A stretch of 64,000 bases of DNA from a bacterium (lineage in GTDB: Bacteria; Patescibacteriota; UBA1384; JAGGWG01). Of this stretch, positions 48,895-62,282 are shown piece by piece; within the stretch, counting starts at the first letter, position 1; each line of letters starts with the position of its first letter. The position numbers were made by a program, and so were the translations under genes. Location: NCBI GenBank assembly GCA_021157605.1, contig JAGGWG010000006.1:2387-66386 (forward strand). The letters are read 5' to 3'. Under the pieces are notes generated by a model. The model was not told where the DNA came from. It did not search any database and saw nothing but the letters and a program-made list of their open reading frames with translations.

Positions 48895-49629
48895 TCAGTA
48901 TCTTTCTATTTCTCCTGCTTTTTGGCGGTATTGGCAGTATTCGCAAGTTGTTTTTGGCTTAGGGAGTTTATCGCTTTGCAGTATTTTTTTGATTTCTTTT
49001 AGTGTTGGCTCTATCCAAGAGGTTGAGCCTTTATAAGGCAGAAGCTTAACATCAAACTCCAGTTTGCCGTCAAAAGCTTTGCGGTCACGCTTGGCATTAA
49101 CATAGACAAAGTAGGCAGTGTCTGAAACCTTAAAGCCATTGTTTCTAAAAAGCCATTGATAGATTTCCAGCTGTCTTTTGTATCCTTCTTTCCATTCTCC
49201 GTCTAAGGTTACCTCCCCGTTAATACTCGTAGCTTTATAATCAACCACAATCAGCTCTTCTTTTTTGCTGATCCAAATGTCGTCAATAGCTCCATAAACC
49301 AAAAAATTAGTTTCAGGATCATGGTACTGAATACCTTGCCTGAAATTACGCCAGTTTTCCAATTCTTGATGCTGAAATGGTACTGCCTCTAAGCCGTAGT
49401 TTTTGAGTAGGGGGTGAGTGGAGTTTTTAGCGCGATGAATATCAAACTCTTTTTTAAGCAAATGATCAACAGCGCTGTTAAGAGTGAAAGCCGGCCACGA
49501 GGGTCGTCTGATGCCTAGTTTTACATCTAGGTAGAAACATCTTGGACACTCCACAAACAACTCAATTTTTGACCGACTGAGTTTGAAGGGGCTTTTTGGT
49601 TTTTGAAAGAAAAGATTTTGCTGCGGCAT
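48895..49629 (-). CDS. Cas4/RecB-like PD-(D/E)XK nuclease (orphan, no CRISPR array or cas genes nearby)
   Basis: It has SKIELFVECPRCFYLD at the N-terminus, a core IDDIWISKKEELIVVDYK (D...D/ExK) and the C-terminal Cys pair CEYC. Confidence 0.55.
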   Translation of the reverse strand: MPQQNLFFQKPKSPFKLSRSKIELFVECPRCFYLDVKLGIRRPSWPAFTLNSAVDHLLKKEFDIHRAKNSTHPLLKNYGLEAVPFQHQELENWRNFRQGIQYHDPETNFLVYGAIDDIWISKKEELIVVDYKATSINGEVTLDGEWKEGYKRQLEIYQWLFRNNGFKVSDTAYFVYVNAKRDRKAFDGKLEFDVKLLPYKGSTSWIEPTLKEIKKILQSDKLPKPKTTCEYCQYRQKAGEIERY

Positions 49630-49880
49630 AGTTTTAATTAGTGGTAATTTTTATATCCTTTTTTACTTTTTCGGGTTTGCTTTTGTATTATTTTGCGTTG
49701 CGGATTTTTTGTCAAAGCCTAGAACCGCTTGGACCAATCATCTCAAGGGTGAGCAGAACAACGAGAATAATAAGAATTTTTATCATCCTTCTTTTTTATT
49801 TTCTCTTTTATTGTATATTTCCATCTTGACTTTTGGGACAAATAGTTACAGAGAGAGGATTTGTTACGTCTTTTGTCTTC

Positions 49881-50612
49881 TTAAATCCTTTTTAGGTATT
49901 TTTCTATTCTTTGTATTTTTTTATCATCCAACTTATCAATTTTCTCCAGTATATATTTTAGTAAATAATGTAGTTTGTGGCTTAAGGCATTTGAGTCAAT
50001 TCCTATTTCATTTTTTCTTGTTAATGCGAATACATCTCGACTTTGATAAAAGAGAACAATAGAACGGAAGTCAGCTTTTGGCATAAAAGGCAGACCTGCG
50101 GCCGGTATATTTTTTGGTGTAAATTCATGTACGAGACTATTCCTTACTCTTAAAAGCTTTTCAATTTCTTCATCATTTAAATTTGTCAGTCTTTTCGTCG
50201 CCTTGAGGAGCTTTTTAATTTTTTTGTGCGTTCCTACCTTTAATTCTCCTTCTTTTGGCATCTGGCCAAAAGGTCTTAATAAGAAATCTGTTATCCATTT
50301 TTTACTTCTGCTTCTATATAATTTTGTTATTTTTATTTTTGCTTCTTCTAATTCTTTTATTTCTTTTTTGCTCCAAAAATCTTTTTCTTTGCTTTCTACA
50401 ATTGCGTTAACTGTTCCAAGAAACTCGATAGTTGCCAAGGTAGATAAAAGAACTGTGAAGTTGCCCCCTCCGATTGGTATTTCTCGGCTATCTTTCTCAA
50501 TGGTGGATACACATTTTGTGTATAGAAAGGTATTGCTGTCAGCAATGGAATAGCTTACTATTTTTGCGATTTTTTTGCTTACCTTATTTTTGAGAATCTT
50601 TTTTTTATTCAC
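49881..50612 (-). CDS. Hypothetical protein with a HEPN-type R-N-x3-H motif (predicted RNase-like effector)
   Basis: It has EIEKLLRVRNSLVHEF (Rx4-6H with N after R) in a helical context. It is 243 aa and overlaps the upstream gene by 8 nt. Confidence 0.4.
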   Translation of the reverse strand: MNKKKILKNKVSKKIAKIVSYSIADSNTFLYTKCVSTIEKDSREIPIGGGNFTVLLSTLATIEFLGTVNAIVESKEKDFWSKKEIKELEEAKIKITKLYRSRSKKWITDFLLRPFGQMPKEGELKVGTHKKIKKLLKATKRLTNLNDEEIEKLLRVRNSLVHEFTPKNIPAAGLPFMPKADFRSIVLFYQSRDVFALTRKNEIGIDSNALSHKLHYLLKYILEKIDKLDDKKIQRIEKYLKRI

Positions 50613-51561
50613 AGACTTCTTTTTTTTTAATACTCAAAGGGAAAAATATAAGTTTGAGCAAAAAGGTTATGATGAAAATTATGCTTAGTATAGCTAACGT
50701 AATTAGAGATAGTGTAAGTGGTAGCCAGGGAATTTTGGCAAGCAAAAAACCTAGATATGCAAGGCTAGCAGGGAATAGTTGCCGGATTAATAACAATATA
50801 CCGAGACAAATTATGATCCATGCTGATAACAGAAAGAATTTGTAAGTCCAGTATGGCCATTTATCCTTCATCAGTTTTTCTCCGCATACAATTTTGGTAG
50901 TTTCCCAAATAACCTCTCCCATTAGCAGTCCTTCTTTAGTTATGAGTATGCCATCGCGTGTGTCTTGACCATTTGCGAATTTGGCAAATCCGCGCATAAC
51001 TAAATTTTTTAGGATTCTATCTCTGCCGATCTTGTCTACTTCTTCCTGTTTGATTTTCATATCGTCTAGTTTTGGAGAATAACTATCTATATCGGCTTGT
51101 TTTAAATTGACTATAAGATTAGAAATTATCTTTTCTTTTGCTTCGGCAGGCAGTCTTTTTTCATCTGGTGGCAACCGGTCTTTGTCATTTCTAAGCTGTT
51201 TTTCTAACTTTCTTATATCTTCCAAAAAAATCAGCCAACTCTTTTCCAATACATCCAAAACAGCCTCGGCAAATTGTTTCTCTTCCTGTGTATCGAGATC
51301 CTGGTTTAGTTTTTCGCGCTGTGCGAGTAGATGGTGTTCGTATTTCTTTTTTCTTGCCTCTATGGTTTTGGCTTTTTCAAAGAGATCAAATTCAAATATA
51401 GGACTGCCCAGATGTTTATGTCCCCAATAAGTCCACCGTAAGATTCTTTTTTCAATAGGCCAAAGGCTTTCTTTTTGGTGGTCTGCTTGGGCATTTAATT
51501 GTTGGAGGGTCTGGAAAAGTTCCAATTTTTTGTAAAATTTAATAGTAAAAGGCAGGTTCAT
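50605..51561 (-). CDS. Hypothetical protein with a soluble charged coiled-coil N-domain and 2-3 C-terminal TM helices
   Basis: 318 aa. The C-terminal segments FFLLSAWIIICLGILLLI and LTLSLITLAILSIIFIITFLL are hydrophobic. It is translationally coupled to the HEPN-motif gene. Confidence 0.4.
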   Translation of the reverse strand: MNLPFTIKFYKKLELFQTLQQLNAQADHQKESLWPIEKRILRWTYWGHKHLGSPIFEFDLFEKAKTIEARKKKYEHHLLAQREKLNQDLDTQEEKQFAEAVLDVLEKSWLIFLEDIRKLEKQLRNDKDRLPPDEKRLPAEAKEKIISNLIVNLKQADIDSYSPKLDDMKIKQEEVDKIGRDRILKNLVMRGFAKFANGQDTRDGILITKEGLLMGEVIWETTKIVCGEKLMKDKWPYWTYKFFLLSAWIIICLGILLLIRQLFPASLAYLGFLLAKIPWLPLTLSLITLAILSIIFIITFLLKLIFFPLSIKKKEVCE

Positions 51562-51684
51562 GCTGTATTTATTTTACTACAAATACTAATCTGTCAAAGT
51601 TAGAGCTAGTTCCGCGTAGCTTTTCCATCTGCTGTTACTTTACAAATCTGCCTCCGAAGTCTGCTATCTCTTTAAAATGTTTGC

Positions 51685-52488
51685 TCAACAATCCTCTCTA
51701 GCTTCCTGGCCCAACAGCCATTTTTCTTTCTTCAGAACTGCCTCGTAGGTTTTTTTGTGCCAATAGAACAGCCTTTTGTCAAGTTCATCTGATATATGAT
51801 AAAAATGAAGATGGGCATACATTTCGGTTAATTTTTTTGCAAAAATCTTTTCCTTAGGTTTAAGCTCTTGAGGTTTTTTCAGCTTCTTCAACCACTGTCG
51901 GGCTTCAACATGCTCCGGCACATTGAGTTTTAGATGTAATACTATATTTTTATACGCATCGCTGCTAAATTTAAATCTCCGGATTTCTTCCAATGTGTTG
52001 TTAAAACTTCGAATTTCTTGATTAAGTCGTGCAAGATATTCATTAATTTTGGGGCCCAGTTTCGCGGTTCCTGGCAATAAAAGTGTTTGTCCAAGCACTG
52101 TATGAACATCAGGATTAAAGATATTATAGAAAGGATTGCCCCACTCTCTCAGCTTGCTGTCCGCTGTTCTTGCCATGTCGTACCGGTGATATCCCCCTTC
52201 TTCATATTTCGTCCAGCTTCCCAGAATCTCTAATTGTTTCTTCAATAGATTAATCGCCTGCATTTTTTCTTCGAAAGTTTTTTTCTCATAAAGGTAAAAA
52301 GCTACCTCCACAGAGAGTCCAGGTATAAGAGCAGGAATAATACCTGAAAGAATATTCTGCAATGAAAAAATATATCCAGTTTTCACCCATCTTGCCCATC
52401 CAAGAGCTAGTATCAAGAGGACTAGGAGTGTGGCAAACCAAAGAGTGGCTGGGTAATTTCTCAATGTTTTCTTCCACAAACTGCACAT
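51685..52488 (-). CDS. Hypothetical protein with two N-terminal TM helices and a soluble C-domain
   Basis: 267 aa. The N-terminus ATLWFATLLVLLILALGW and IIPALIPGLSVEVAFYL is hydrophobic. I recognised no catalytic motif. Confidence 0.4.
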   Translation of the reverse strand: MCSLWKKTLRNYPATLWFATLLVLLILALGWARWVKTGYIFSLQNILSGIIPALIPGLSVEVAFYLYEKKTFEEKMQAINLLKKQLEILGSWTKYEEGGYHRYDMARTADSKLREWGNPFYNIFNPDVHTVLGQTLLLPGTAKLGPKINEYLARLNQEIRSFNNTLEEIRRFKFSSDAYKNIVLHLKLNVPEHVEARQWLKKLKKPQELKPKEKIFAKKLTEMYAHLHFYHISDELDKRLFYWHKKTYEAVLKKEKWLLGQEAREDC

Positions 52489-52584
52489 AGCGACTTTTAG
52501 CTTGCGTTTTTGCTGACAAACCTCTACTGGTAATTCATCTAATCTATCATATCTCTTGGGCCTAGGTCAATAATAGTATTTTTT

Positions 52585-52612
52585 ACAAAAAAGGGGCTCT
52601 GCCGAACCCCTT
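52585..52612 (-). terminator. Rho-independent terminator downstream of hsdR
   Basis: On the minus strand, AAGGGGUUCGGCAGAGCCCCUU forms a hairpin. It is followed by a U-run, which reads as the plus-strand A6 at 52587-52592. Confidence 0.5.
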
Positions 52613-52666: not shown

Positions 52667-55663
52667 TTAATCTGAAGAACCAGCATCTTCAAACAAAAAT
52701 TGAGCTTGTTTTAAAGTAACCTGAGCAATGGGCTCAGCCTCCTGTGGCGGAATTCCCGATCGATAAAGAATCCTTTTAATTTTGCCTCTAATCCTAGCAA
52801 GCAACACGTCATTATTCGTCCAATCTACCGCCAGATCTTCTTTAATTGCCTGTACCACTTCCTTTGCTAACCGTCTCAATTCTTTATCCTCTTTTATATA
52901 CTTTTTCCCTTTTGTCAATGCGTCATAAAAAGCTAACTCTTCCTCACTCAAGCCTAATTTTTGCCCCTTTCTCTCTTCTGCTTTTATCTCCTTTGCCAAG
53001 TCAATCAACTTATCAATAGTTTCGGCAGAATCTATAAATTTCTTCTCATATTTCTCAATTACCTCTTCCAATCTTTCTCTAAGAGAGTCATACCGCACTA
53101 TATTTTTCCTTAATCGCGAATTAATTTCATCACTTAGCAATTTTCTTAATACTTGAATCGCCAAATTGGGGTAGGCCATCTGCTTTAGTCTTTTCAAAAA
53201 TTCTTCATCAAAGATCGAAACCTCCGGCTTTTTCTTGCCTTGCATCTCTAAGATATCTATTGGTTTGTCAGCTGCAATGCTCTCGGCAATCAGCTCTTTA
53301 ACTGTAGTTTCTATTTTCTGCTCCACCGTTAGTGGCCGAACAATTACTCTTTTAACAATATTTTTCTTAATCGCCTGAAAGAACTCTACTTCTTTTTGAA
53401 TTTTATCTGCTTCGGGATGGGGCCGAATAAAAGCCCACAATTTAAACAATGCTGTTGCCTCTTTTATAAAACGTTTTTGTTTTTCTTCATCAATTCTCCC
53501 TGTTTCTTCATCAGTAATAACTTTGTTAATCGCCCGCTGAAAGAGTCGAGCCAATTTCCTTCCTGGTAGCTTGTGCCAGCTTTTGTATCTCATCCCAGCA
53601 AAATAAGAACGAACGATATCGTATTTCTCGTGCATTCTCTCAATTAACTCCTCTAGAGGGATCAAGGCTTCTTTGACCTCTTTTTCACTATAGATGTTCA
53701 ATGCTTTCCTCAAATCATCCGCAATCCCAATATAATCAACGATTAAACCTCCCTGCTTATCCTTAAAAACCCTGTTCACTCTCGCAATCGCCTGCATCAA
53801 AGTATGGTTTTTCAAAGGCTTGTCCATATACATTGTGGCCAAGCAAGGCACATCAAACCCCGTCAACCACATATCGCAAACAATCACCATTTTGAGCGGA
53901 TCATCTGGATCCACAAATCTCTCTTTTAGCTGTTCCACATCCAAATCATCCTGAACCTTTCCTTTAAAATCAGTCAACCCGGAAACAGCCACTGCACACT
54001 CTGGAGCCTCAGGGTTTTTAGAAATTAGTTTATACATCTTGACCGCTACTTTTCGACTAATGGTCACCACCATCGCTTTTCCTTCAACTGCCCGATGGTT
54101 GAAATGCCAGACGATATCTCGGGCGATTTTCTCTAGCCGGTCAGGGTCACTGATCAGCTTTTCTAATCTGGAATACCTCTTCTTAAGTTCTTCTTTTGCC
54201 TCTGTATCTAAATTCGCCGTAAGATGGTCAAAATCTTCATCTATAAACTCGTTTGTTAAATGCAAAGGCACAAGTCTTCCTTCGTAATAGATAGGAACGA
54301 CTGCTTTATCTTCCACCGCTCTATCGATAGGATAAACACTAATATAATCTCCAAAAACCAACCTCGTATCTCTATCCCGAAGGCTGATTGGAGTCCCAGT
54401 AAAACCGAGAAAAGAAGCATTGGGCATTGCCTGACGAGCATTGCCTGCAAGTTTTGCGTATTGCGATCGATGAGCTTCGTCAGCAATAACAATTAGATTA
54501 TGCTTCTTAGAGAGAAGAGGGTATTTTTCTTCTTCACGCTCGGTCTCAAATTTTTGAATTGTGGTAAAGATTATGTCTCCACTTGCTCTTTTAAGTCTCT
54601 CTCGTAAATCTCTGATTGACTTTGCCTGTTTAGGAAAGAGGCCACACCTTTTAAACTTCTTAAAAAGTTGGTTGTCAAGATCGTTTCTGTCAGTCAAAAA
54701 TACAAAAGCTGGATTTTTAAGTTCTTTAAGTTGTCGTACTTTGTTCACATAAAAAATCATTGAAATAGATTTTCCCGAGCCTTGCGTGTGCCAAAAAACT
54801 CCAATGCGACCATCTCCTTTAGGCTTAACTTTTGTCTTTGTGGCTTCAATCGCTTTGTTCACCCCAAAGTATTGGTGATAAAGGGGCATCTTTTTGACAA
54901 AAGTGCTCCCTTCTTTCTCAAAAATGATGAAATTTTGAACGATATCTAAAAAACGAGCCTTGTGGAAAATGCCTTTAATCAAAACCTCAAGTTGGTTCAC
55001 TCCTTTTGTTTTTTCGTTTTCATTCTCAATTTTTTTCCAAACCGAGAACCATTCGCGGGTAGAACTAATTGTACCGTGCTTAGCTTCTAAAAGATCAGAA
55101 ATAACAATGACTTGATTGTATTTAAAGATATCGGGGATATCTTTTTTGTAACCTTTCATCACTTGATCGTAAGCATCATCGATTGTGGCATTTTCTGTAG
55201 CCGGGTTTTTGAATTCAAAAAGAGCCAAAGGCAAACCATTTACAAAGACTATGAGATCGGGCCGCCTTACTTTTTCTGTGCCTTGAACGGAAAATTGGTT
55301 AACGATTAAAAAGTCATTTCGCTCCGGCTGCTCAAAATCAATTAGCTTAACATAATCCCATTTTTCTTCGTCAATCTTGAGCGGTACACCCTGAATAAGC
55401 AGTCGGTAAAAGTTCTTGTTAGCAATTATAAGGTCCGGATGTTCGATTCGTTGAATTTCCTCAATCGTTTCTTCTATTGCTGCTTGAGGAATTCCCGGAT
55501 TCAAATTTACCAAAGCCTCTTTGAGCCTTCTTTCTAAAATTACCTGGCGATAATCTCTTCGTTCCAATACCAAATCTTTTGGACCAAAGGCATAATCATA
55601 CCCAAGGCTTTTAAACCACTCAATTGCTGGTTGTTCTGTTAGGGTTTGTTCGATTAGTTTCAT
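52667..55663 (-). CDS. hsdR: Type I restriction enzyme R subunit
   Basis: 998 aa. It has an N-terminal PD-(D/E)XK region, an SF2 helicase motif I (FWHTQGSGKS) and motif II VIADEAHRSQ. The C-terminal half is helical. Confidence 0.9.
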   Translation of the reverse strand: MKLIEQTLTEQPAIEWFKSLGYDYAFGPKDLVLERRDYRQVILERRLKEALVNLNPGIPQAAIEETIEEIQRIEHPDLIIANKNFYRLLIQGVPLKIDEEKWDYVKLIDFEQPERNDFLIVNQFSVQGTEKVRRPDLIVFVNGLPLALFEFKNPATENATIDDAYDQVMKGYKKDIPDIFKYNQVIVISDLLEAKHGTISSTREWFSVWKKIENENEKTKGVNQLEVLIKGIFHKARFLDIVQNFIIFEKEGSTFVKKMPLYHQYFGVNKAIEATKTKVKPKGDGRIGVFWHTQGSGKSISMIFYVNKVRQLKELKNPAFVFLTDRNDLDNQLFKKFKRCGLFPKQAKSIRDLRERLKRASGDIIFTTIQKFETEREEEKYPLLSKKHNLIVIADEAHRSQYAKLAGNARQAMPNASFLGFTGTPISLRDRDTRLVFGDYISVYPIDRAVEDKAVVPIYYEGRLVPLHLTNEFIDEDFDHLTANLDTEAKEELKKRYSRLEKLISDPDRLEKIARDIVWHFNHRAVEGKAMVVTISRKVAVKMYKLISKNPEAPECAVAVSGLTDFKGKVQDDLDVEQLKERFVDPDDPLKMVIVCDMWLTGFDVPCLATMYMDKPLKNHTLMQAIARVNRVFKDKQGGLIVDYIGIADDLRKALNIYSEKEVKEALIPLEELIERMHEKYDIVRSYFAGMRYKSWHKLPGRKLARLFQRAINKVITDEETGRIDEEKQKRFIKEATALFKLWAFIRPHPEADKIQKEVEFFQAIKKNIVKRVIVRPLTVEQKIETTVKELIAESIAADKPIDILEMQGKKKPEVSIFDEEFLKRLKQMAYPNLAIQVLRKLLSDEINSRLRKNIVRYDSLRERLEEVIEKYEKKFIDSAETIDKLIDLAKEIKAEERKGQKLGLSEEELAFYDALTKGKKYIKEDKELRRLAKEVVQAIKEDLAVDWTNNDVLLARIRGKIKRILYRSGIPPQEAEPIAQVTLKQAQFLFEDAGSSD

Positions 55664-55672
55664 TTTGCCTCA

Positions 55673-56911
55673 TTAGAAAAAATAAAAATACATCCCACTA
55701 ATCCAACACCTCTTTTGCCCTTCAAAATCTGGGCCGCAAAAAGGAAGGGTTCGAGAAGTGCTGTCATTCAAAAGAAAGGGTTTGGTAGGATAACGTAGTC
55801 CCGTCCCAATATTAGCCTCATTTTTGTAAACATTTGCTATATCATCACAGATCACCGCTAAAAAAGAAGCGAAGACAGTGTCATTATGAATCATTTTGTT
55901 TTTTTGGAAAATCTCAAAAAAAGTCTCTCCCTTTTCATTCTTTAAAAATTTCGACGCTTCAACACAAATGGTCACTCTGAAATCAGCTTGAAAATCTGCT
56001 TGCAATTGCTGCTGATACACAATGTTTGCTTTTCTCAAAATGGTTTTTAAAAGTCGGGGAGACATTGTTTGGGGAAATTCTTGAAAAAGGGCCATAAAGA
56101 AAGAAGCAAGTTGATCTTTGGCGGGCTTATATTCTTCATTTTCTAAAAAATCAGGATCAAAAATTTGTTCGATAAACTCTTCAAAATGTGAGATTTTGGG
56201 GTAGAAAAACTCTGCGTAGTCCAAAAACTTTAAATATCTCTGGGTCTCTTTCTGGAAGTTTTCACTACCTATGAGAGCAATGACTATAAATTTCTTTTTT
56301 AGATTTTCTCTGCACAAAATGTTTCTGATAAAGTAACTAAGAGTTTCGAGGAAAAAGAGTCCTTCTTCTCCTGAACGATCAGCATCTTCTATTATCAAAA
56401 AGAAATCTTGCCGCTTCAAAAGTTTCTTCGACCCTTCTAGGAACAACTTTTGAAATTCAACCATAGCTTCCGGGGGGAGTTCGCGAAACAGATCCAATAG
56501 TCCAGTTAATCCACCAAGACGGGCAGAAGACAAAATGGCTTTAAAAAGTTCAATAGCGAAATTTCGGCCACTTTTCCCTTTCATCTTCTTTTCCAAAAAA
56601 GATAACTCCGAAGTCTGTTGAACCATCTCTAACAACAGCCCCTCCCATAAAAGTTTTCTGTTGGGATAACTCCAAGCCTCAAACTTTATCCATTTTTCCT
56701 TTTTCGACCTTTTTCTTTTGTCCATTATTTGGTACAACATTGTGCTCTTACCTATACCATAAGGACCAATAAGACCTACTAGAGCTGGCTTATCGATTGA
56801 AGACAATTTTTGCTCAAAGGATCTGATATATTCTGAAAAATTTAAAAGATCCGGCACCTCGGGTGTCTCTTGAAGCAGTTTCAAGTTTTTAATAAAACCT
56901 TTTGTCTTCAT
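55673..56911 (-). CDS. KAP-family P-loop NTPase embedded between hsdS and hsdR
   Basis: It has the Walker A motif LIGPYGIGKST, the KAP-typical FEAWSYPNRKLLWEGLL and the Walker B motif FFLIIEDADRS. It starts 2 nt after the hsdS stop and stops 9 nt before hsdR. Confidence 0.6.
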   Translation of the reverse strand: MKTKGFIKNLKLLQETPEVPDLLNFSEYIRSFEQKLSSIDKPALVGLIGPYGIGKSTMLYQIMDKRKRSKKEKWIKFEAWSYPNRKLLWEGLLLEMVQQTSELSFLEKKMKGKSGRNFAIELFKAILSSARLGGLTGLLDLFRELPPEAMVEFQKLFLEGSKKLLKRQDFFLIIEDADRSGEEGLFFLETLSYFIRNILCRENLKKKFIVIALIGSENFQKETQRYLKFLDYAEFFYPKISHFEEFIEQIFDPDFLENEEYKPAKDQLASFFMALFQEFPQTMSPRLLKTILRKANIVYQQQLQADFQADFRVTICVEASKFLKNEKGETFFEIFQKNKMIHNDTVFASFLAVICDDIANVYKNEANIGTGLRYPTKPFLLNDSTSRTLPFCGPDFEGQKRCWISGMYFYFF

Positions 56912-56913
56912 GG

Positions 56914-58137
56914 CTATACCCTTATTTCCCCACTCATTAATTTAGGCAAAAGTAAATCGCGAAGAGACGATAAAAGTTGGTTTTCTTTTACATTCCGGAT
57001 AAGTTGTTTATAAAGGGGGAAGCACATTTTTTCGAAATGATTAAGCAGCTTCTTTGGAGGGAGAACAAAAGGCATTCTGCAAAGATCATCCCATTTTACC
57101 ACAGGCATCTTGGTCCCCGATGCGCATTTGGAAGCGAATTCTATTGTAGAAGCAGAGAATAAGAGAGAAATTGAAAATGAATATAACTCTCGCTTTCTAG
57201 GATAAATCACAAAAACTGATTGATTTGTGACACCATCGAAAGGTGCTATAACTACCTTGTGAAAATAAGGCCTTACGGCTCCGAAAAGAATATCCCCTTT
57301 GTAAAATCTAAATGCCGATGTCTTAATCTCTGCACCCTTACCAAAAGTGGAAACACTCAGACTTCGCCGAGGAAACCTCCCTAGATCAAGTAACTTTTCT
57401 CTCTTCCACTCCTCAAAGGTTTTAATTCTCTCCCTCCGTCGCTCTACGATCTCTCCCAACCTCTCTACTCTCCATCCTTCCGGAATTTTGCCTAATTCGC
57501 TGTCAACAAATTTCACTTTTTCCCAACCCGGGAATCTAAATTTCACAAACCACTCTTCAAAAATCGCCTGCGCCATTTCCTCCAGTGTCTGGTTAATCTT
57601 GTTGTTGAGCTCAATCTTCTCATCAAAAGCAGAAAGAATATCCGCAATGCGCTTTTGTTCGTTGAGGTCTTGGGGGATTGTTATTTCAAAGTTCTCAAAT
57701 TTGGATTTAGAAATATTCGTGTATACCGACCCACTATATTTTAACAATCGAGGTTTCACGTATTTAAAACAGTAATAAAGGAATTCGGGTAGAATTTTAT
57801 CTATATCGCAAATTACAGAATTGATTTGTTGATTAGTAAAGCTTTCCCTGCATGTTATTCCGACTTCTCCTACAGTAGCCAAACACGAAACCACAACAGC
57901 TTTGGGTGGCAACTTTAAATTTCTCATCGATTGTGCCCCTTTTTCTGAAAGAGTTCGCTCTGTTTTCTCTATGTAGCGCTGATTTTTTAGATCGGGAATG
58001 GTAATAAATGGGTAACGACCGCCGAAATTTCTTGGATCAGTAGTAGAAGGAGTTTTGCCTGTTATAACCTTCCCGATTTCTTTAATTTTCACGCTTTTCC
58101 ATTTTTTACTCTTGGAAAACATCTTTTCGTCCTCCAT
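56914..58137 (-). CDS. hsdS: Type I restriction-modification specificity subunit
   Basis: It has two target-recognition domains separated by conserved helical spacers (e.g. the IFEEWFVKFRFPGW and LRDLLLPKLMSGEI repeats). An alternative start at the MFSK codon (58122) has a better GGAGGA Shine-Dalgarno sequence. Confidence 0.85.
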   Translation of the reverse strand: MEDEKMFSKSKKWKSVKIKEIGKVITGKTPSTTDPRNFGGRYPFITIPDLKNQRYIEKTERTLSEKGAQSMRNLKLPPKAVVVSCLATVGEVGITCRESFTNQQINSVICDIDKILPEFLYYCFKYVKPRLLKYSGSVYTNISKSKFENFEITIPQDLNEQKRIADILSAFDEKIELNNKINQTLEEMAQAIFEEWFVKFRFPGWEKVKFVDSELGKIPEGWRVERLGEIVERRRERIKTFEEWKREKLLDLGRFPRRSLSVSTFGKGAEIKTSAFRFYKGDILFGAVRPYFHKVVIAPFDGVTNQSVFVIYPRKRELYSFSISLLFSASTIEFASKCASGTKMPVVKWDDLCRMPFVLPPKKLLNHFEKMCFPLYKQLIRNVKENQLLSSLRDLLLPKLMSGEIRV

Positions 58138-58169
58138 TTTTAATTTTTAACTTTATCCTCCACCAATTT

Positions 58170-59075
58170 TTATTTAAAAAGCTCCTCCAAGAAAATCCTA
58201 ATTTTAACTGCTGCACCTTCCACGTCTGACAATTGAATATTGATCGAGTATGAATGTTGAGCACTATCAATTAAAATTTTGTAATTCATTACCTCTTTGT
58301 AAATTCTTTTGTTGGAAAGCAACCTTTCCGCTTTCCCCAAGAGATTTTTTGTCTCTAAATACTGCCCCTTTTCATCTTTGACTTCTGACTCTTTGTTTAT
58401 TTGCTGGAACTTCCTCACAATAGAAAGAGGCAAAATTCTTCTTAAAATTAATATAGATGCTATTGGTCTTTTGTTGGCGAAATTAAAATTAAAATCATCA
58501 CACAATATTTTCAAATCTGGAGGTAGCTTTTTCACCAAGCTGTTTGGAAATAAATCTTTCTCAGTTCGACTGCTTCTTATTGTTGGTTTATCTTTAGTTT
58601 TGCTAATCGTCCAATCAAGAAGCTTATCACGCACAGCCTCTAAAACTGAAACTATCTGGCTTTGAGGGAAAAACATTGCAAACTCTGTCCGCATCTTAAC
58701 TGCTTGTGCAAGCATTTCTTGCATGGGTGGTGGATATTTAATTTGCAAGTAGTCTTCACTTTTATCAAGCAGGTTCTCAAGTTCGGGAATTGACTCAAAG
58801 ATGTGTTGTCGAGAAAGCAAATCTTGAGTTTTGTCGTCTTTGGGAAACATCACGGGTATCCATCGACCCAAAACAGGATTAAGTGCCTTGGGCTCACCTC
58901 TTATCAACCTATAGCTAGGTGGTTTGCCTGAACTGTAACCATTCATTTCGCGATCAATCCATTTTAAAAATTCTTTATCGCCCAATTCACTCGCCAGGAT
59001 CTTTGCCTTCCTTAATAACTCCGAAACTTTTGCTTCAGATTTAATGATCTCGTTTTTAAATTCCTGGATATCCAT
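58170..59075 (-). CDS. Hypothetical ~300-aa protein embedded between hsdM and hsdS (possibly Abi-like)
   Basis: I prefer the MDIQEF start at 59075 with a GAGGG Shine-Dalgarno sequence. The track starts at 59117 and would overlap the upstream gene by 32 nt. The N-terminal segment LKWIDREMNGY resembles abortive-infection (AbiTii-like) N-domains, but this is unverified. Confidence 0.4.
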   Translation of the reverse strand: MDIQEFKNEIIKSEAKVSELLRKAKILASELGDKEFLKWIDREMNGYSSGKPPSYRLIRGEPKALNPVLGRWIPVMFPKDDKTQDLLSRQHIFESIPELENLLDKSEDYLQIKYPPPMQEMLAQAVKMRTEFAMFFPQSQIVSVLEAVRDKLLDWTISKTKDKPTIRSSRTEKDLFPNSLVKKLPPDLKILCDDFNFNFANKRPIASILILRRILPLSIVRKFQQINKESEVKDEKGQYLETKNLLGKAERLLSNKRIYKEVMNYKILIDSAQHSYSINIQLSDVEGAAVKIRIFLEELFK

Positions 59076-59085
59076 ACTTCCCTCT

Positions 59086-59379
59086 TTATCTGATAACGAA
59101 AAATTTATAAATCTCAAAAAGCAAACTTGCTATAGCAATTAGCATTCCAATGCCCGCTATGATAACACCAGCTAAAGTGATTTTATTTAAGGCTTTTGTT
59201 AACTTCTCTGAAGAGGCGGTGGCCTTCTCGATATTCGAATTAAGGTTTTTTAGCTCTTCCTTAATCCTTCCCACTGTACGAAAAAAGCCTGAAGGCCAAG
59301 GTCTCACAGAGAAATAGGAAGTCAAAGTGTCCAAAAATTTCCGGATTTTTTCATAATCTTCTTCCTTAAATCTCATCAT
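59086..59379 (-). CDS. Small tail-anchored membrane protein (97 aa)
   Basis: It has a soluble helical N-terminus and a single C-terminal TM (ITLAGVIIAGIGMLIAIASLLF). There is a 4-nt ATGA overlap with the GIY-YIG stop. Confidence 0.35.
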   Translation of the reverse strand: MMRFKEEDYEKIRKFLDTLTSYFSVRPWPSGFFRTVGRIKEELKNLNSNIEKATASSEKLTKALNKITLAGVIIAGIGMLIAIASLLFEIYKFFVIR

Positions 59380-59681
59380 TTTCCTTTCTGTTCTTTATTA
59401 AATGGCGGTTTTCTTCTCCTAACAAGAAAAGTCTCTAGCCTTTTGGCTTCTTCTACAGAGTTAGTAAGAATCACTCCAAACTTTACCGCTTGCTGTTTCT
59501 GCTCTCGAATCTCCCGCACACTTTCCAAAATTCTTTTTGGCAAACGTCCTCTTTTCGCTCGCCCCACTTTTTGAAGTCGACCAGAACGAGTGAAGATCCC
59601 GTATACCCCCGGCTTGTCTTTGGGCAATTGTTTGAGAGTGACTTTGGTGATCTTTTTGATTGAAACAAATTTTTTACGCAT
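59376..59681 (-). CDS. Small stand-alone GIY-YIG nuclease domain protein (YhbQ-like, 101 aa)
   Basis: It has KPGVYGIF...GRLQKVGRAKRGRL...ILESVREI...VILTNSVEEAKRLETFLVRRRKPPFN. This places the GIY / Y(K)VG / Arg / Glu / Asn catalytic pattern in order. It overlaps the hsdM stop by 8 nt and has a GGGAG Shine-Dalgarno sequence. Confidence 0.6.
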   Translation of the reverse strand: MRKKFVSIKKITKVTLKQLPKDKPGVYGIFTRSGRLQKVGRAKRGRLPKRILESVREIREQKQQAVKFGVILTNSVEEAKRLETFLVRRRKPPFNKEQKGK

Positions 59682-61278
59682 TTTGTCTCCCTAAACGCTT
59701 TAAGTTATGCTTAATTTTTCTTTCTAGCTTCCTCGACTCCTTGAAATATTTTTCTAATTGCTTCGTCAATTTTTTCATCTTCTTCTCAAACGGTATGCCG
59801 TCGTCTTCTTCGGGCTTAATACCCACATATCTTCCCGGCGTCAAAACATAACCTGCTTTTCTAATTTCTTCGATAGTGACTGCCTTACAAAATCCTGGCT
59901 CATCCTTGTATTTTCCGGCTCCCTTTTCTCCCCGCCAAGCTCTAACAGTATCAGCGATTTTCTGAATCTGCTTGTCAGTGATCACATATTGTTTTCTGGA
60001 AATTGGCTCATACATTTCGCGCGCATCAATAAACAAAGTTTCACCACGACGGTCTCTAAATCTTTTATTTCTTTTGTCTTTGGTCAAAAACCAAAGAGAG
60101 ACCGGCAATGAAACGTTGTAGAAAAGTTTGGGCGGACAGGCAATAATTACGTCTACCAAATCATCTCTAATAATTCTTTTTCTAATTTCGCCTTCTTTGC
60201 CTCCCACAGCCAGGGCGCCATTTGCCATCACAAAACCAGCTACTCCGCCGGGAGCCAAGTGGTAAACAAAGTGCTGGATCCACATAAAGTTTGCGTTGCT
60301 GTTAGGAGGAAGACCATATTTGATCCTTGGATCTTTCTGAATTCTATCTGCGCCCCAATCTGAAAAGTTAAAGGGGGGATTGGAAATTACAATATCTGCT
60401 CGGAGATCAGGGAATTTGTCATTGTGGTAAGAATCGCCTTGTTCAACGTGGGCGATGATCCCTCTAATTGCCAAATTCATTTGGCAAAGCCGCCAGGTGG
60501 TTGAGTTTTTTTCTTGGCCATAAAAGTTTATTTTGCTGGGATCTTTTTTGTGCATTTCAATAAATTTTCTGCTTTGGATAAACATACCTCCGCTTCCGCA
60601 GGCTGGGTCAAAAACCCGACAGTTTTCATAGGGCTCCAAAATCTCTATCAGTAACTTTACTAAACATCGAGGCGTGTAGAATTCGCCACCTCTTTTGCCC
60701 TCTGCAGAAGCAAACTGACCAATGAAATACTCATAGATTCTTCCCAAGAGATCTTTGTCTTTTTCTTTTTGTTCTTGAATCTTGCTAAAGAGATTGATCA
60801 GCTCGCCTAGAATTCTGGGTTCTAAATCTCTGACTCGCGTGTACTCCACAAAAATTTTAGGCAGAACACCTTTTAGTTGAGGGTTTTCTTGTTCTATTAA
60901 TTCCATTGCCTTGTCTAGCTTACGAGCAATATCAGAGGAGGTAGCGTTTTCTTGAAGATAGGACCATCGGGCTTCTGGGGGAATATAAAAAATGCCCTGG
61001 CTAAGGTAAGAATCTTTGTCTTCAGTAATAGCTTCTCGAGCTTGAGGCGTAGGGGCGTAATAGGGGCTGTTTTTGTCTTGGGTGGCTTTTTCGAGAAATC
61101 TCTTTCGCTTATCAAAAGCCTCAGAAATGTATTTTAAAAAGATCAATCCCAAAACAATATGTTTGTATTCAGAGGCATCCATGCTGCCTCGCAGCTTGTC
61201 AGCTGCTTGCCAAAGTTGGTTTTCAAAATCGATGTCTTTCATTTCTGCTATCTTAGCAGATTTACCCCTAAAAATCAA
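59674..61278 (-). CDS. hsdM: Type I restriction-modification N6-adenine DNA methyltransferase subunit
   Basis: It has an N-terminal HsdM_N helix domain, the motif I region FDPACGSGGMF and motif IV NPPFNFSDW. Confidence 0.9.
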   Translation of the reverse strand: MIFRGKSAKIAEMKDIDFENQLWQAADKLRGSMDASEYKHIVLGLIFLKYISEAFDKRKRFLEKATQDKNSPYYAPTPQAREAITEDKDSYLSQGIFYIPPEARWSYLQENATSSDIARKLDKAMELIEQENPQLKGVLPKIFVEYTRVRDLEPRILGELINLFSKIQEQKEKDKDLLGRIYEYFIGQFASAEGKRGGEFYTPRCLVKLLIEILEPYENCRVFDPACGSGGMFIQSRKFIEMHKKDPSKINFYGQEKNSTTWRLCQMNLAIRGIIAHVEQGDSYHNDKFPDLRADIVISNPPFNFSDWGADRIQKDPRIKYGLPPNSNANFMWIQHFVYHLAPGGVAGFVMANGALAVGGKEGEIRKRIIRDDLVDVIIACPPKLFYNVSLPVSLWFLTKDKRNKRFRDRRGETLFIDAREMYEPISRKQYVITDKQIQKIADTVRAWRGEKGAGKYKDEPGFCKAVTIEEIRKAGYVLTPGRYVGIKPEEDDGIPFEKKMKKLTKQLEKYFKESRKLERKIKHNLKRLGRQNA

Positions 61279-61578: not shown

Positions 61579-61935
61579 TTAGTCTCCCGGCAGAAAAGGA
61601 TGGTTGCCTTTTTCTTCCACGGTCTCGATCAAAGTGATAATGATGACTATTGGTAATAAGAAGAGGTAAAGGCACATTCCTCCAAATTTCTGCAGAGCGA
61701 ATCTTATTCGCCATTCTGCGGGAGCAATGAGTCTGTTCCAAAAATACAGGCTCGCGCTGTAGCGAATTACTTGTTCCGGAGGTATTGCGAGTATTCTTCG
61801 CTCTATGACTTCCACGAAATGATGACACCGGTTACAAAAATAACGATTTACTTTGGTGTCTCCTGATTCTAGTATTGGTTCTACGAACTGCAAAAAGTTA
61901 TTGCACCGTTCACATCTTATTTCAGCACCTCTCAT
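61579..61935 (-). CDS. Zinc-ribbon protein with a hydrophobic C-terminal region (paralog A)
   Basis: It has CERC...CNRC, then LYFWNRLIAPAEW, then a C-terminal TM (LYLFLLPIVIIITLI). Confidence 0.45.
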   Translation of the reverse strand: MRGAEIRCERCNNFLQFVEPILESGDTKVNRYFCNRCHHFVEVIERRILAIPPEQVIRYSASLYFWNRLIAPAEWRIRFALQKFGGMCLYLFLLPIVIIITLIETVEEKGNHPFLPGD

Positions 61936-62282
61936 TTTAATACCTCCTCTTCTTCGTAATCGTTTTCGCGCGAGATGAGATCCATAACATAATCAACTGT
62001 AAACAAAGGCACAATGATAGAAAGGAGACCCAACTCCCTTATTTCTTCGAGGGCGAAAGATACCCCCCATGCCAAAGGAGCAACCAGCTTTCTCCAAAAA
62101 TAAAGTGTTGGGCCACACCTTTTTTGCTCTGTGAGAGTAAGATTGAGACCAGGATCGTACCACGATATTACCTCAACATATTCATTGCAATTGCCGCAAT
62201 AATAACGCTCAATGTCTTTGTCGTCGAGACTGAGTATAGTCTCGACGAATCGCAGTAACTTCCCGCATTTGTCGCACTTCAT
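61932..62282 (-). CDS. Zinc-ribbon protein with a hydrophobic C-terminal region (paralog B)
   Basis: It has CDKC...CGNC, then LYFWRKLVAPLAW, then a hydrophobic helix. It aligns colinearly with paralog A and overlaps it by 4 nt. Confidence 0.45.
   Translation of the reverse strand: MKCDKCGKLLRFVETILSLDDKDIERYYCGNCNEYVEVISWYDPGLNLTLTEQKRCGPTLYFWRKLVAPLAWGVSFALEEIRELGLLSIIVPLFTVDYVMDLISRENDYEEEEVLK

Follow-up and report, generated by a model that had tools for sequence, protein, structure and literature searches.

The closest described counterparts of the locus reported here are HEPN RNases that accompany restriction-modification (RM) systems. At least 16 HEPN clades are tied to RM systems, and a PrrC-type model has been put forward for them (PMC3710099). 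In the case of PrrC and RloC, the HEPN RNase is genetically attached to Type I RM, and the proposed logic is that of a back-up which fires once restriction is blocked (PMC3710099; PMC12707154). PrrC carries an N-terminal ABC-type ATPase domain and its gene is located between hsdM/S and hsdR. The proteins of the ApeA/BMEI1217 type (PF18739) and the EC042_2821/DUF3644 type, the latter including HEC-08, are single Rx4-6H HEPN effectors encoded in or after RM operons. HEC-08 is an embedded HEPN defence gene, the motif histidine of which is needed for defence (bioRxiv 10.1101/2024.01.29.577857). Single-protein Abi HEPN RNases are known as well, among them AbiV with its variant active-site arrangement (PMC3710099), and HEPN toxins occur in the HEPN-MNT (type II/VII) toxin-antitoxin systems. 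The 'guilt by embedding' genes of Type I RM, BREX and Hma systems (TgvAB, BrxU, HECs) are related by their placement; tgvAB lies between hsdM and hsdS.

The window, i.e. the whole stretch of 64,000 nucleotides that was analysed, contains a Type I RM operon and three further genes on the same strand, here referred to as A, B and C. The three minus-strand open reading frames of the initial annotation were recovered at their coordinates, and the neighbouring Type I RM operon was verified, since hsdM, hsdS and hsdR were all matched by domain models. The trio had been described as lying upstream of that operon; by the direction of transcription it is positioned downstream of hsdR. The features of the locus are the following:

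52667..61278, minus strand: Type I RM operon carrying passenger genes
59674-61278, minus strand: hsdM, N6_Mtase match at 2.8e-108
59376-59681, minus strand: GIY-YIG-like gene inside the RM operon
59086-59379, minus strand: gene of a TM protein inside the RM operon
58170-59117, minus strand: AbiTii gene inside the RM operon, 4.9e-36
56914-58137, minus strand: hsdS, Methylase_S match at 1e-42
55673-56911, minus strand: KAP NTPase gene inside the RM operon
52667-55663, minus strand: hsdR, matches to HSDR_N, SWI2_SNF2 and T1RH-like_C
52591..52612, minus strand: terminator-like hairpin just past the hsdR stop, 9-bp stem with 5 G-C pairs, followed by a T run
52541..52570, minus strand: promoter-like site before A, TTGACC-18-TAGATT with TG, consensus match
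51685..52488, minus strand: gene A, 267 aa, ATG start (ORF listing)
50605..51561, minus strand: gene B, 318 aa, ATG start (ORF listing)
50605..50612, minus strand: overlap of the B stop and the C start, 8 nt, GTGAATAA
49881..50612, minus strand: gene C, 243 aa, GTG start (ORF listing)
48895..49629, minus strand: PD-(D/E)XK (Cas4-like) gene flanking the island, 58% identical to the island-flanking gene of locus L005

The gap of 123 nt between A and B and the 8-nt overlap of B and C were both as initially annotated. The trio is flanked on one side by the hairpin behind hsdR and on the other by a promoter-like site that belongs to the following gene. The hairpin between hsdR and A suggests that transcription of the trio is not a mere continuation of that of hsdR and, given these bounds, the three genes could be co-transcribed in the window. 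The number of promoter-like sites in the region does not exceed the shuffled expectation, and the site before A is to be read as a consensus match only. The base composition of the region (GC 0.34-0.40, compared with ~0.38 for the window) showed no clear anomaly. Viral contigs were scanned for all three proteins and yielded nothing, as did tblastn searches of phage and plasmid collections with C and two of its distant relatives, which gives no evidence for phage or plasmid origin. The proposal that the locus is a defence island was upheld. It was also correct that none of the three proteins resembles a named family: no model of Pfam, NCBIfam, PADLOC or PHROGs matched A, B or C, and neither did the PADLOC 2.0 models including the PDC candidates. 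Profile searches of the PDB with the three proteins yielded nothing meaningful.

The R-N-x3-H motif that had been noticed in C (LLRVRNSLVHEF) is present, and a second conserved motif is located in the N-terminal part of the protein:

50127..50144, minus strand: Rx4H motif of C, R157-N-S-L-V-H162, predicted catalytic pair (alignment and model)
50460..50471, minus strand: GGGN motif of C, residues 48-51, at the N-terminus of core helix 50-73 (model)

The loose Rx4-6H pattern alone is not above chance, being found in 21 of the 49 ORFs of at least 150 aa in the window. In C it is meaningful because R157 and H162 are invariant in all 66 aligned relatives at a mean column identity of 20%. The position following the arginine (158) is occupied by N in 58 of the 66 relatives and by H in 7 more. 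G48, G50 and N51 are likewise found in 66/66 relatives, G49 in 65/66 and D25 in 65/65. The family comprises about 70 clusters at 50% identity with the signature D...GGGN...RNxLxH, and its close members are apparently confined to uncultured, CPR-like bacteria.

The AlphaFold (AF2) model of C, with a pLDDT of 94.7, displays a four-helix bundle of the HEPN type, in which helices 2 and 3 are separated by a large helical insert of ~60 residues, and a C-terminal extension bearing a small beta-hairpin. The Rx4H motif is situated at the C-terminal end of core helix 147-163. In HEPN proteins the motif is expected where helix 3 ends and the next loop begins (PMC3710099), and the position of Rx4H in C, together with the polar residue (N) after the arginine, matches this anatomy. 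Database searches with C were less informative. No Pfam match was obtained at E<=1 and the gathering threshold of no HEPN model was reached; among the 66 relatives, weak matches were detected to HEPN_Apea (5, best E 1.1e-3) and HEPN_RiboL-PSP (1, 2.3e-4), along with single weak matches to pEK499_p136 and DUF3644. PADLOC applied to all 66 relatives gave scattered single weak matches only, and the source names of ten distant relatives were either absent or 'hypothetical protein'. Foldseek, suggested as a check in the initial annotation, found nothing in the PDB at E<=0.001, the sole HEPN entry, 2hsb, appearing at rank 42. The motif position in the model did fit HEPN. The initial assignment of a HEPN fold with a conserved catalytic-type Rx4H motif is corroborated by the alignment of the 66 relatives and the AlphaFold model. 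Judged by these two lines of evidence, C is a real HEPN-superfamily protein of an undescribed, unnamed family.

In comparison with the known systems, C resembles the ApeA and EC042_2821/DUF3644 types as a single Rx4-6H HEPN effector linked to RM operons, and the weak HEPN_Apea and DUF3644 matches of its relatives point in the same direction. In contrast to the ApeA type, C lacks both the beta-rich domain at the N-terminus and the zinc-ribbon tail. It differs from the RM-linked HEPNs also in its own signature of D25 and GGGN48-51, in the helical insert and in the beta-hairpin extension. C shares the genetic attachment to Type I RM with PrrC and RloC; however, it contains no NTPase domain and its gene follows hsdR behind the terminator-like hairpin, which rules out membership of that group. 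A sequence relationship to AbiV and the other single-protein Abi HEPN RNases was not detectable. Membership of the HEPN-MNT toxin-antitoxin systems was ruled out as well, since no MNT nucleotidyltransferase gene was found next to C in the window or at the 7 other distinct C loci; C is also about twice the size of the HEPN-MNT toxins, and its neighbour here is a membrane winged-helix protein. By analogy with PrrC and HEC-08, C is probably an RNase effector with a comparable back-up role.

The membrane topologies initially assigned to A and B, two N-terminal TM helices in A and C-terminal TM helices in B, were reproduced by hydropathy and are kept in the homologues of both proteins:

52297..52458, minus strand: N-terminal TM pair of A, residues 11-36 and 46-64 (hydropathy; kept in both homologues)
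50899..51048, minus strand: winged-helix-like region of B, residues 172-221, NLVxRGFA...GILITxEGLLMGEVI
50623..50850, minus strand: C-terminal membrane anchor of B, residues 238-313, 2-3 TM helices (hydropathy)

B is built of a conserved N-terminal helical region with an HKHLGSP motif, a variable coiled-coil insert, a winged-helix-like domain and the C-terminal TM helices. The winged-helix-like domain displays the helix-turn-helix followed by a beta-hairpin wing, and the structure model contains helices 235-262, 264-274 and 280-309 in the anchor region. C-terminal TM segments were predicted by hydropathy in all 11 B family members. The family was tied to RM in at least 9 of about 14 contexts (raw counts): B is placed between hsdM and hsdS at seven loci (L021, L023, L039-43), as tgvAB is, and follows a IIG methyltransferase at two (L005, L007). 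Directly after B, an Mrr_cat gene was found in two distinct clades of the B phylogeny (L016, 4-nt overlap; L005, 34-nt gap), and the encoded Mrr_cat proteins themselves lack an N-terminal DNA-binding domain. Other B homologues are followed by Fic (L020), Bro-N (L045) or unknown genes. B belongs to an RM-embedded family and is a winged-helix protein tethered to the membrane. In A, the two TM helices precede a soluble domain of ~200 aa, for which neither PDB nor family-library matches were obtained. The A family has three members, the two homologues being 43-48% identical to A and trailing type II RM genes (L008, L010), so that all three follow RM genes (3/3 contexts, raw counts).

The homologues of C were located next to RM genes in 6 of 8 distinct contexts (raw counts from a small sample). 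Apart from the Type I RM of the window, a Type I RM system was found within 2 kb (L013), and C follows an Eco57I-like (IIG-type) methyltransferase gene with an 8-nt overlap (L004), a series of D12 methyltransferase, AlwI restriction endonuclease and AbiU2-like genes with a 4-nt overlap with the last (L012), and Bro-N and type III Res genes (L046); at L047 it overlaps a HARE-HTH gene. The remaining two homologues are solo or beside housekeeping genes (L001, L048). Members of the family are repeatedly placed straight after genes of type I, IIG, IIS and III RM systems.

The co-occurrence of the families was determined with profile HMMs of A, B and C applied to all six frames of 48 related loci and the window. 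Outside the window, 12 matches were obtained for C, 33 for B and 3 for A. Two of the families were never found in one locus among the 48, and the window alone contains more than one; the sample is small, with 8 distinct C loci and 3 A loci, and a distant partner could be missed on the many short contigs. An absence of co-occurrence outside this genome, named in the initial annotation as evidence against its own proposal, was what was observed. A conserved three-gene system with a fixed gene order is thus not supported across the 48 loci, and A and B are not needed partners of C elsewhere; the three proteins may cooperate at this locus specifically. Recurrent placement inside or beside defence or RM genes at unrelated loci was seen for the A, B and C families separately. 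Genes of 157/158 aa beside A, B and C homologues (L008, L007, L004) were considered as one family and proved to be unrelated.

We regard it as rather probable that the 2.6-kb stretch forms the outer margin of a defence island at a Type I RM operon, with three unrelated accessory genes and C as a HEPN RNase core; the genome appears to be a metagenome-derived one of Patescibacteria/CPR-like type. The initial annotation had instead combined A, B and C into one dedicated membrane-coupled abortive-infection system, the membrane proteins sensing a signal or relaying it to the HEPN effector. The adjacency of the genes on one strand, their common bounds, the B/C overlap and the membrane character of both A and B argue for such a system. 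However, no match of any of the families elsewhere shares its locus with another, and C homologues occur solo, beside housekeeping genes or after unrelated RM genes. The overlap, which had been taken as a sign of coupling between B and C, stems from C's own start: NTGAATAA overlaps unrelated upstream genes at two other loci (L004, L012), and B and C are co-translated here only because this start context terminates whatever frame enters it. On this evidence, the dedicated three-gene system is very unlikely. The gene order and translational coupling of B and C also resemble antitoxin-toxin operons, with C as the toxin, B as its neutraliser and stabilisation of the island by addiction, not phage defence, as the outcome. 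Against this, neither an MNT gene nor another conserved small partner accompanies any C homologue, B is a 318-aa membrane protein with an RM-linked distribution of its own, and the solo homologues indicate that members of the C family do without a cognate antitoxin, which makes the pair highly improbable.

A rather unlikely reading, although a stronger one than the previous two, is a two-gene module in which membrane-tethered B serves as sensor, anchor or regulator for an exchangeable downstream nuclease, HEPN here and Mrr_cat elsewhere. B directly precedes a nuclease without its own DNA-binding domain at at least three loci (Mrr_cat twice, HEPN once). However, the genes following most B homologues are not nucleases, the B of L023, the closest kin of that of L016, has HsdS next to it, which excludes a fixed B-Mrr_cat pairing as a rule, C has no B neighbour at any other locus, and Mrr_cat genes are common in defence islands anyway. 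The more specific proposal that the B family is a new RM-associated class, licensing or placing an interchangeable nuclease at the membrane, the entry site of phage nucleic acid, appears decidedly unlikely; if true, the B-C pair of the window would be a functional two-component membrane-coupled effector. The least probable of the readings is that C is a non-catalytic helical bundle, for instance DinB/YfiT-like or a binding HEPN, and that the locus has no RNase function. It is contradicted by the motif position and by the fact that R and H are strictly invariant and spaced in the usual RNxLxH manner. DinB-type metal sites require a histidine triad; the C family has one invariant histidine only, which rules out the DinB/YfiT-like version. 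Non-catalytic HEPNs usually lose the motif (PMC3710099).

In the preferred reading of an island edge with three unrelated accessory genes, A, B and C would each derive from a small family separately linked to RM systems and would have accumulated independently beside a Type I RM operon already holding AbiTii and KAP-NTPase genes. The functional core would be C, a stand-alone protein of ~240 aa. By analogy with PrrC, the ApeA-type HEPNs, HEC-08 and AbiV, it may act as a metal-independent endoribonuclease that is silent in uninfected cells. HEPN enzymes with such activity usually work through a composite site formed in a dimer. A phage evading or inhibiting the neighbouring RM system would cause C to cleave RNA (tRNA, rRNA or mRNA), and growth and phage production would be halted as a consequence.

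The locus is most likely a defence island of the ordinary kind and does not represent a new system of three genes. The families of A, B and C are RM-operon passengers like the 'guilt by embedding' genes, and the operon of the window has AbiTii and KAP NTPase passengers too. Current concepts are left unchanged, and the gain consists of better annotation and a short, testable list of candidate defence genes from a lineage with a poorly known immune repertoire. The unnamed HEPN family with the D...GGGN...RNxLxH signature joins the RM-linked RNase effectors, and 'guilt by embedding' screens gain two more candidates in the membrane-anchored winged-helix family of B and the 2-TM family of A. The RM operons of small uncultured (CPR-like) genomes collect passengers much like those of well-studied bacteria.

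All three open reading frames were recovered exactly as the initial annotation had described them, on the minus strand. The features of the island are listed in the direction of transcription.

59674-61278, minus: hsdM of the Type I restriction-modification (RM) operon
59086-59681, minus: two small genes directly after hsdM (101 aa and 97 aa)
58170-59117, minus: AbiTii-domain protein, 315 aa (PF18864, E 4.9e-36, residues 17-176)
55673-56911, minus: KAP-family P-loop NTPase, 412 aa (PF07693, E 1.1e-5, above the gathering score)
52667-55663, minus: hsdR, between the KAP-family NTPase and A
52591-52612: terminator-like hairpin directly 3' of the hsdR stop (9-bp stem, T run)
52541-52570: promoter-like site after the hairpin, ahead of A (consensus match only)
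51685-52488, minus: gene A, ORF of 267 aa
50605-51561, minus: gene B, ORF of 318 aa
49881-50612, minus: gene C, ORF of 243 aa, GTG start
49687-49715: promoter-like site TTGACA-17-AATAAT preceding the PD-(D/E)XK gene, the strongest of the region (consensus match only)
48895-49629, minus: PD-(D/E)XK/Cas4-like gene flanking the island, 3' of C

The transcriptional order was hsdM, GIY-YIG-like gene, TM protein, AbiTii, hsdS, KAP NTPase, hsdR, A, B, C and the PD-(D/E)XK/Cas4-like gene. The genes A, B and C were thought to lie directly upstream of the Type I RM operon; relative to transcription they are located downstream of hsdR. The hairpin and the promoter-like sites are consensus matches only; they suggest that A-B-C may form a transcription unit of its own. 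The AbiTii-domain gene, placed between hsdM and hsdS, belongs to the abortive-infection-associated genes and is embedded in the Type I RM operon, and the KAP-family NTPase, positioned between hsdS and hsdR and with weak PADLOC matches to QatA and PifA, is a second embedded passenger. The 101-aa protein weakly resembled the N-terminal (GIY-YIG) region of UvrC (NCBIfam E 8e-6, far under the cut-off), and the 97-aa TM protein had a hydrophobic helix at its C-terminus. Just 5' of hsdM (61579-62282, minus) were two adjacent small paralogues of 118 and 116 aa, each zinc-ribbon-like at its N-terminus (CxxC…CxxC) and hydrophobic in the C-terminal part. The PD-(D/E)XK/Cas4-like gene was 58% identical to a gene of locus L005 (10834-11568) which flanks a different island, containing SNF2/PLD, Bro-N, a IIG methyltransferase, a B homologue and Mrr_cat. 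The occurrence of this flanking gene at two different islands suggests that defence cargo integrates next to it, at a conserved hot spot.

Zero matches to Pfam, NCBIfam, PADLOC and PHROGs were obtained for A, B or C, in agreement with the earlier view that none resembles a named family. Their sequences were identical to the hypothetical proteins J7K05_00765, J7K05_00770 and J7K05_00775 of a metagenome-assembled "bacterium" at NCBI; one homologue came from a Candidatus Moraniibacteriota MAG, which makes a CPR/Patescibacteria-type host probable. Hydropathy bore out the TM segments described before: A has two near its N-terminus (residues 11-36 and 46-64), and B has 2-3 TM helices in one C-terminal block (residues 238-313). 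These patterns were kept in the respective homologues.

The loose Rx4-6H pattern is uninformative alone, as 21 of the 49 ORFs in the window with 150 aa or more contained it. A word-seeded search resulted in 12 close relatives of C at 43-50% identity, and an exhaustive profile search with E<=1e-3 in 71 representatives, almost all of which were 210-260 aa long and had a single domain. In the alignment of 66 of these (mean column identity 20%), G48, G50, N51, R157 and H162 were the only invariant positions, D25 and G49 were near-invariant, and N158 was present in 58 members. These positions give D…GGGN…RNxLxH as the signature of the family. The AlphaFold2 model built with the 66-member alignment (pLDDT 94.7, pTM 0.91) contained a helical insert at 82-143 besides the long helices 3-32, 50-73 and 147-163, and its C-terminal part included a small hairpin; the single hydrophobic stretch (54-72) was a core helix of the globular model. 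The R…H motif was placed at the C-terminus of helix 147-163, exactly as in the HEPN superfamily, where the motif spans helix 3's end and the beginning of the loop that follows, and helices 2 and 3 typically have inserts between them (Anantharaman et al., PMC3710099). Weak Pfam matches among the relatives were to HEPN_Apea (5, best E 1e-3), HEPN_RiboL-PSP (1, 2e-4) and pEK499_p136 (1). The HEPN reading of the R-N-x3-H motif, which is of the catalytic type, was thus upheld by conservation and the model, and C very probably belongs to this superfamily, as a new, unnamed family outside the named Pfam families.

The proposal that A, B and C form one membrane-coupled abortive-infection module was examined with HMMs of the three families against all six reading frames of 48 related loci (L001-L048). 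Outside the window, C was matched 12 times, B 33 times and A 3 times, and none of these 48 loci contained more than one of the families. This argues against a three-gene system, such a lack of co-occurrence having been named in the initial annotation as a refuting outcome. Eight distinct contexts of C were distinguished, counting the Type I RM operon of the window. C homologues were located 2 kb from a Type I RM system with Bro-N and Fic genes (L013), over the end of an Eco57I-like methyltransferase gene (L004), after a D12 methyltransferase, an AlwI endonuclease and a 201-aa AbiU2-like protein (L012), after Bro-N and a type III Res gene (L046), overlapping a HARE-HTH gene (L047), beside RhuM (L001) and amid housekeeping genes (L048). 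B homologues occurred between hsdM and hsdS (L021, L023), between a methyltransferase with Bro-N and an HsdS-like protein (L039-43), after IIG-type methyltransferases (L005, L007), ahead of Mrr_cat nucleases (L005, L016), ahead of Fic (L020) and ahead of Bro-N followed by HsdM (L045); in other loci unknown or housekeeping genes adjoined. The A family had just two homologues, both directly after type II RM genes. From these separate contexts, each family is RM-linked independently.

Bro-N genes recurred within RM operons (L013 5243-10255, L039 673-5862, L046 2-3456), and Fic and RhuM genes adjoining C or B homologues in these uncultured bacteria; such passengers resemble those reported for RM-linked toxin genes. 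The L012 segment 7405-8684 held a tandem pair of HEPN-type genes after the type IIS (AlwI) RM pair, the 201-aa protein having a weak HEPN_AbiU2 match and an RHQFVAH motif and the second gene being the C homologue, with a 4-nt overlap between them.

The 8-nt overlap of B and C (50605-50612; …GTC TGT GAA TAA over GTG AAT AAA…) was confirmed; A and B were spaced by 123 nt. The overlap had been taken as a sign of a B-C partnership. However, C homologues begin with M-N-K, encoded by NTG AAT AAA, whose two other frames contain TGA and TAA. Since the family's gene start, NTGAATAA(A), carries stop codons in both, any upstream gene entering it in those frames ends inside it. The same type of overlap was found with the methyltransferase gene of L004 (1737-1744, 8 nt) and the AbiU2-like gene of L012 (8007-8010, 4 nt), and the three overlapped genes are mutually unrelated. 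The "translational coupling" is therefore a property of C's own start and does not mark a B-C pair.

The B family alignment fell into four parts: an N-terminal region with invariant W34, E37-K38, W43 and H48-K-H-L-G-S53, then a coiled-coil insert confined to the four long members, the conserved block NLVxRGFA…GILITxEGLLMGEVI and the C-terminal TM helices. In L017, the B homologue P0018 (6001-7074) had an extra C-terminal soluble domain of ~130 aa after the TM helices, by its sequence a candidate HAD-hydrolase-like domain. Mrr_cat genes were located directly downstream of B homologues in L005 (8986-9846) and L016 (6576-7481). Both products had an N-terminal nuclease domain followed by ~170 residues, without the Mrr_N DNA-binding domain, and were 31% identical over the first 140 residues. 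A fixed partner of B was ruled out, as the two B-Mrr_cat pairs fell in separate clades of the neighbour-joining tree and the nearest relative of one paired B protein was followed by HsdS instead. Because a nuclease recurs downstream of B, a partnership of B-type membrane winged-helix proteins with exchangeable nucleases is still considered, as an unlikely arrangement. Gene A encodes two TM helices and a soluble domain of ~200 aa, with many invariant positions in a 3-sequence comparison and no family, PDB or viral match; its only informative feature is the RM-trailing position.

That HEPN genes occur beside RM systems in defence islands is well established. The HEPN family of C is undescribed, and the families of B and A count as new RM passengers. 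The C family is attached repeatedly to RM systems of four types, and the island additionally holds the AbiTii and KAP-NTPase passengers. An RM link is recorded for at least 16 HEPN clades, for which a PrrC-like action was proposed, with silence as long as the RM system is neither inhibited nor overwhelmed (PMC3710099). PrrC, to which C is likened, is a HEPN protein embedded in a Type IC locus (PMC12707154) with a proposed RM-guarding role. HEC-08, an embedded HEPN protein, needs its motif histidine for phage defence (bioRxiv 10.1101/2024.01.29.577857), and other defence genes in Type I RM operons, e.g. TgvAB, were validated. By analogy with this literature, C would most likely be a back-up endoribonuclease; speculatively, the insert 82-143 and the C-terminal extension may have an autoinhibitory or sensing role. 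The activation of C would most likely halt translation.
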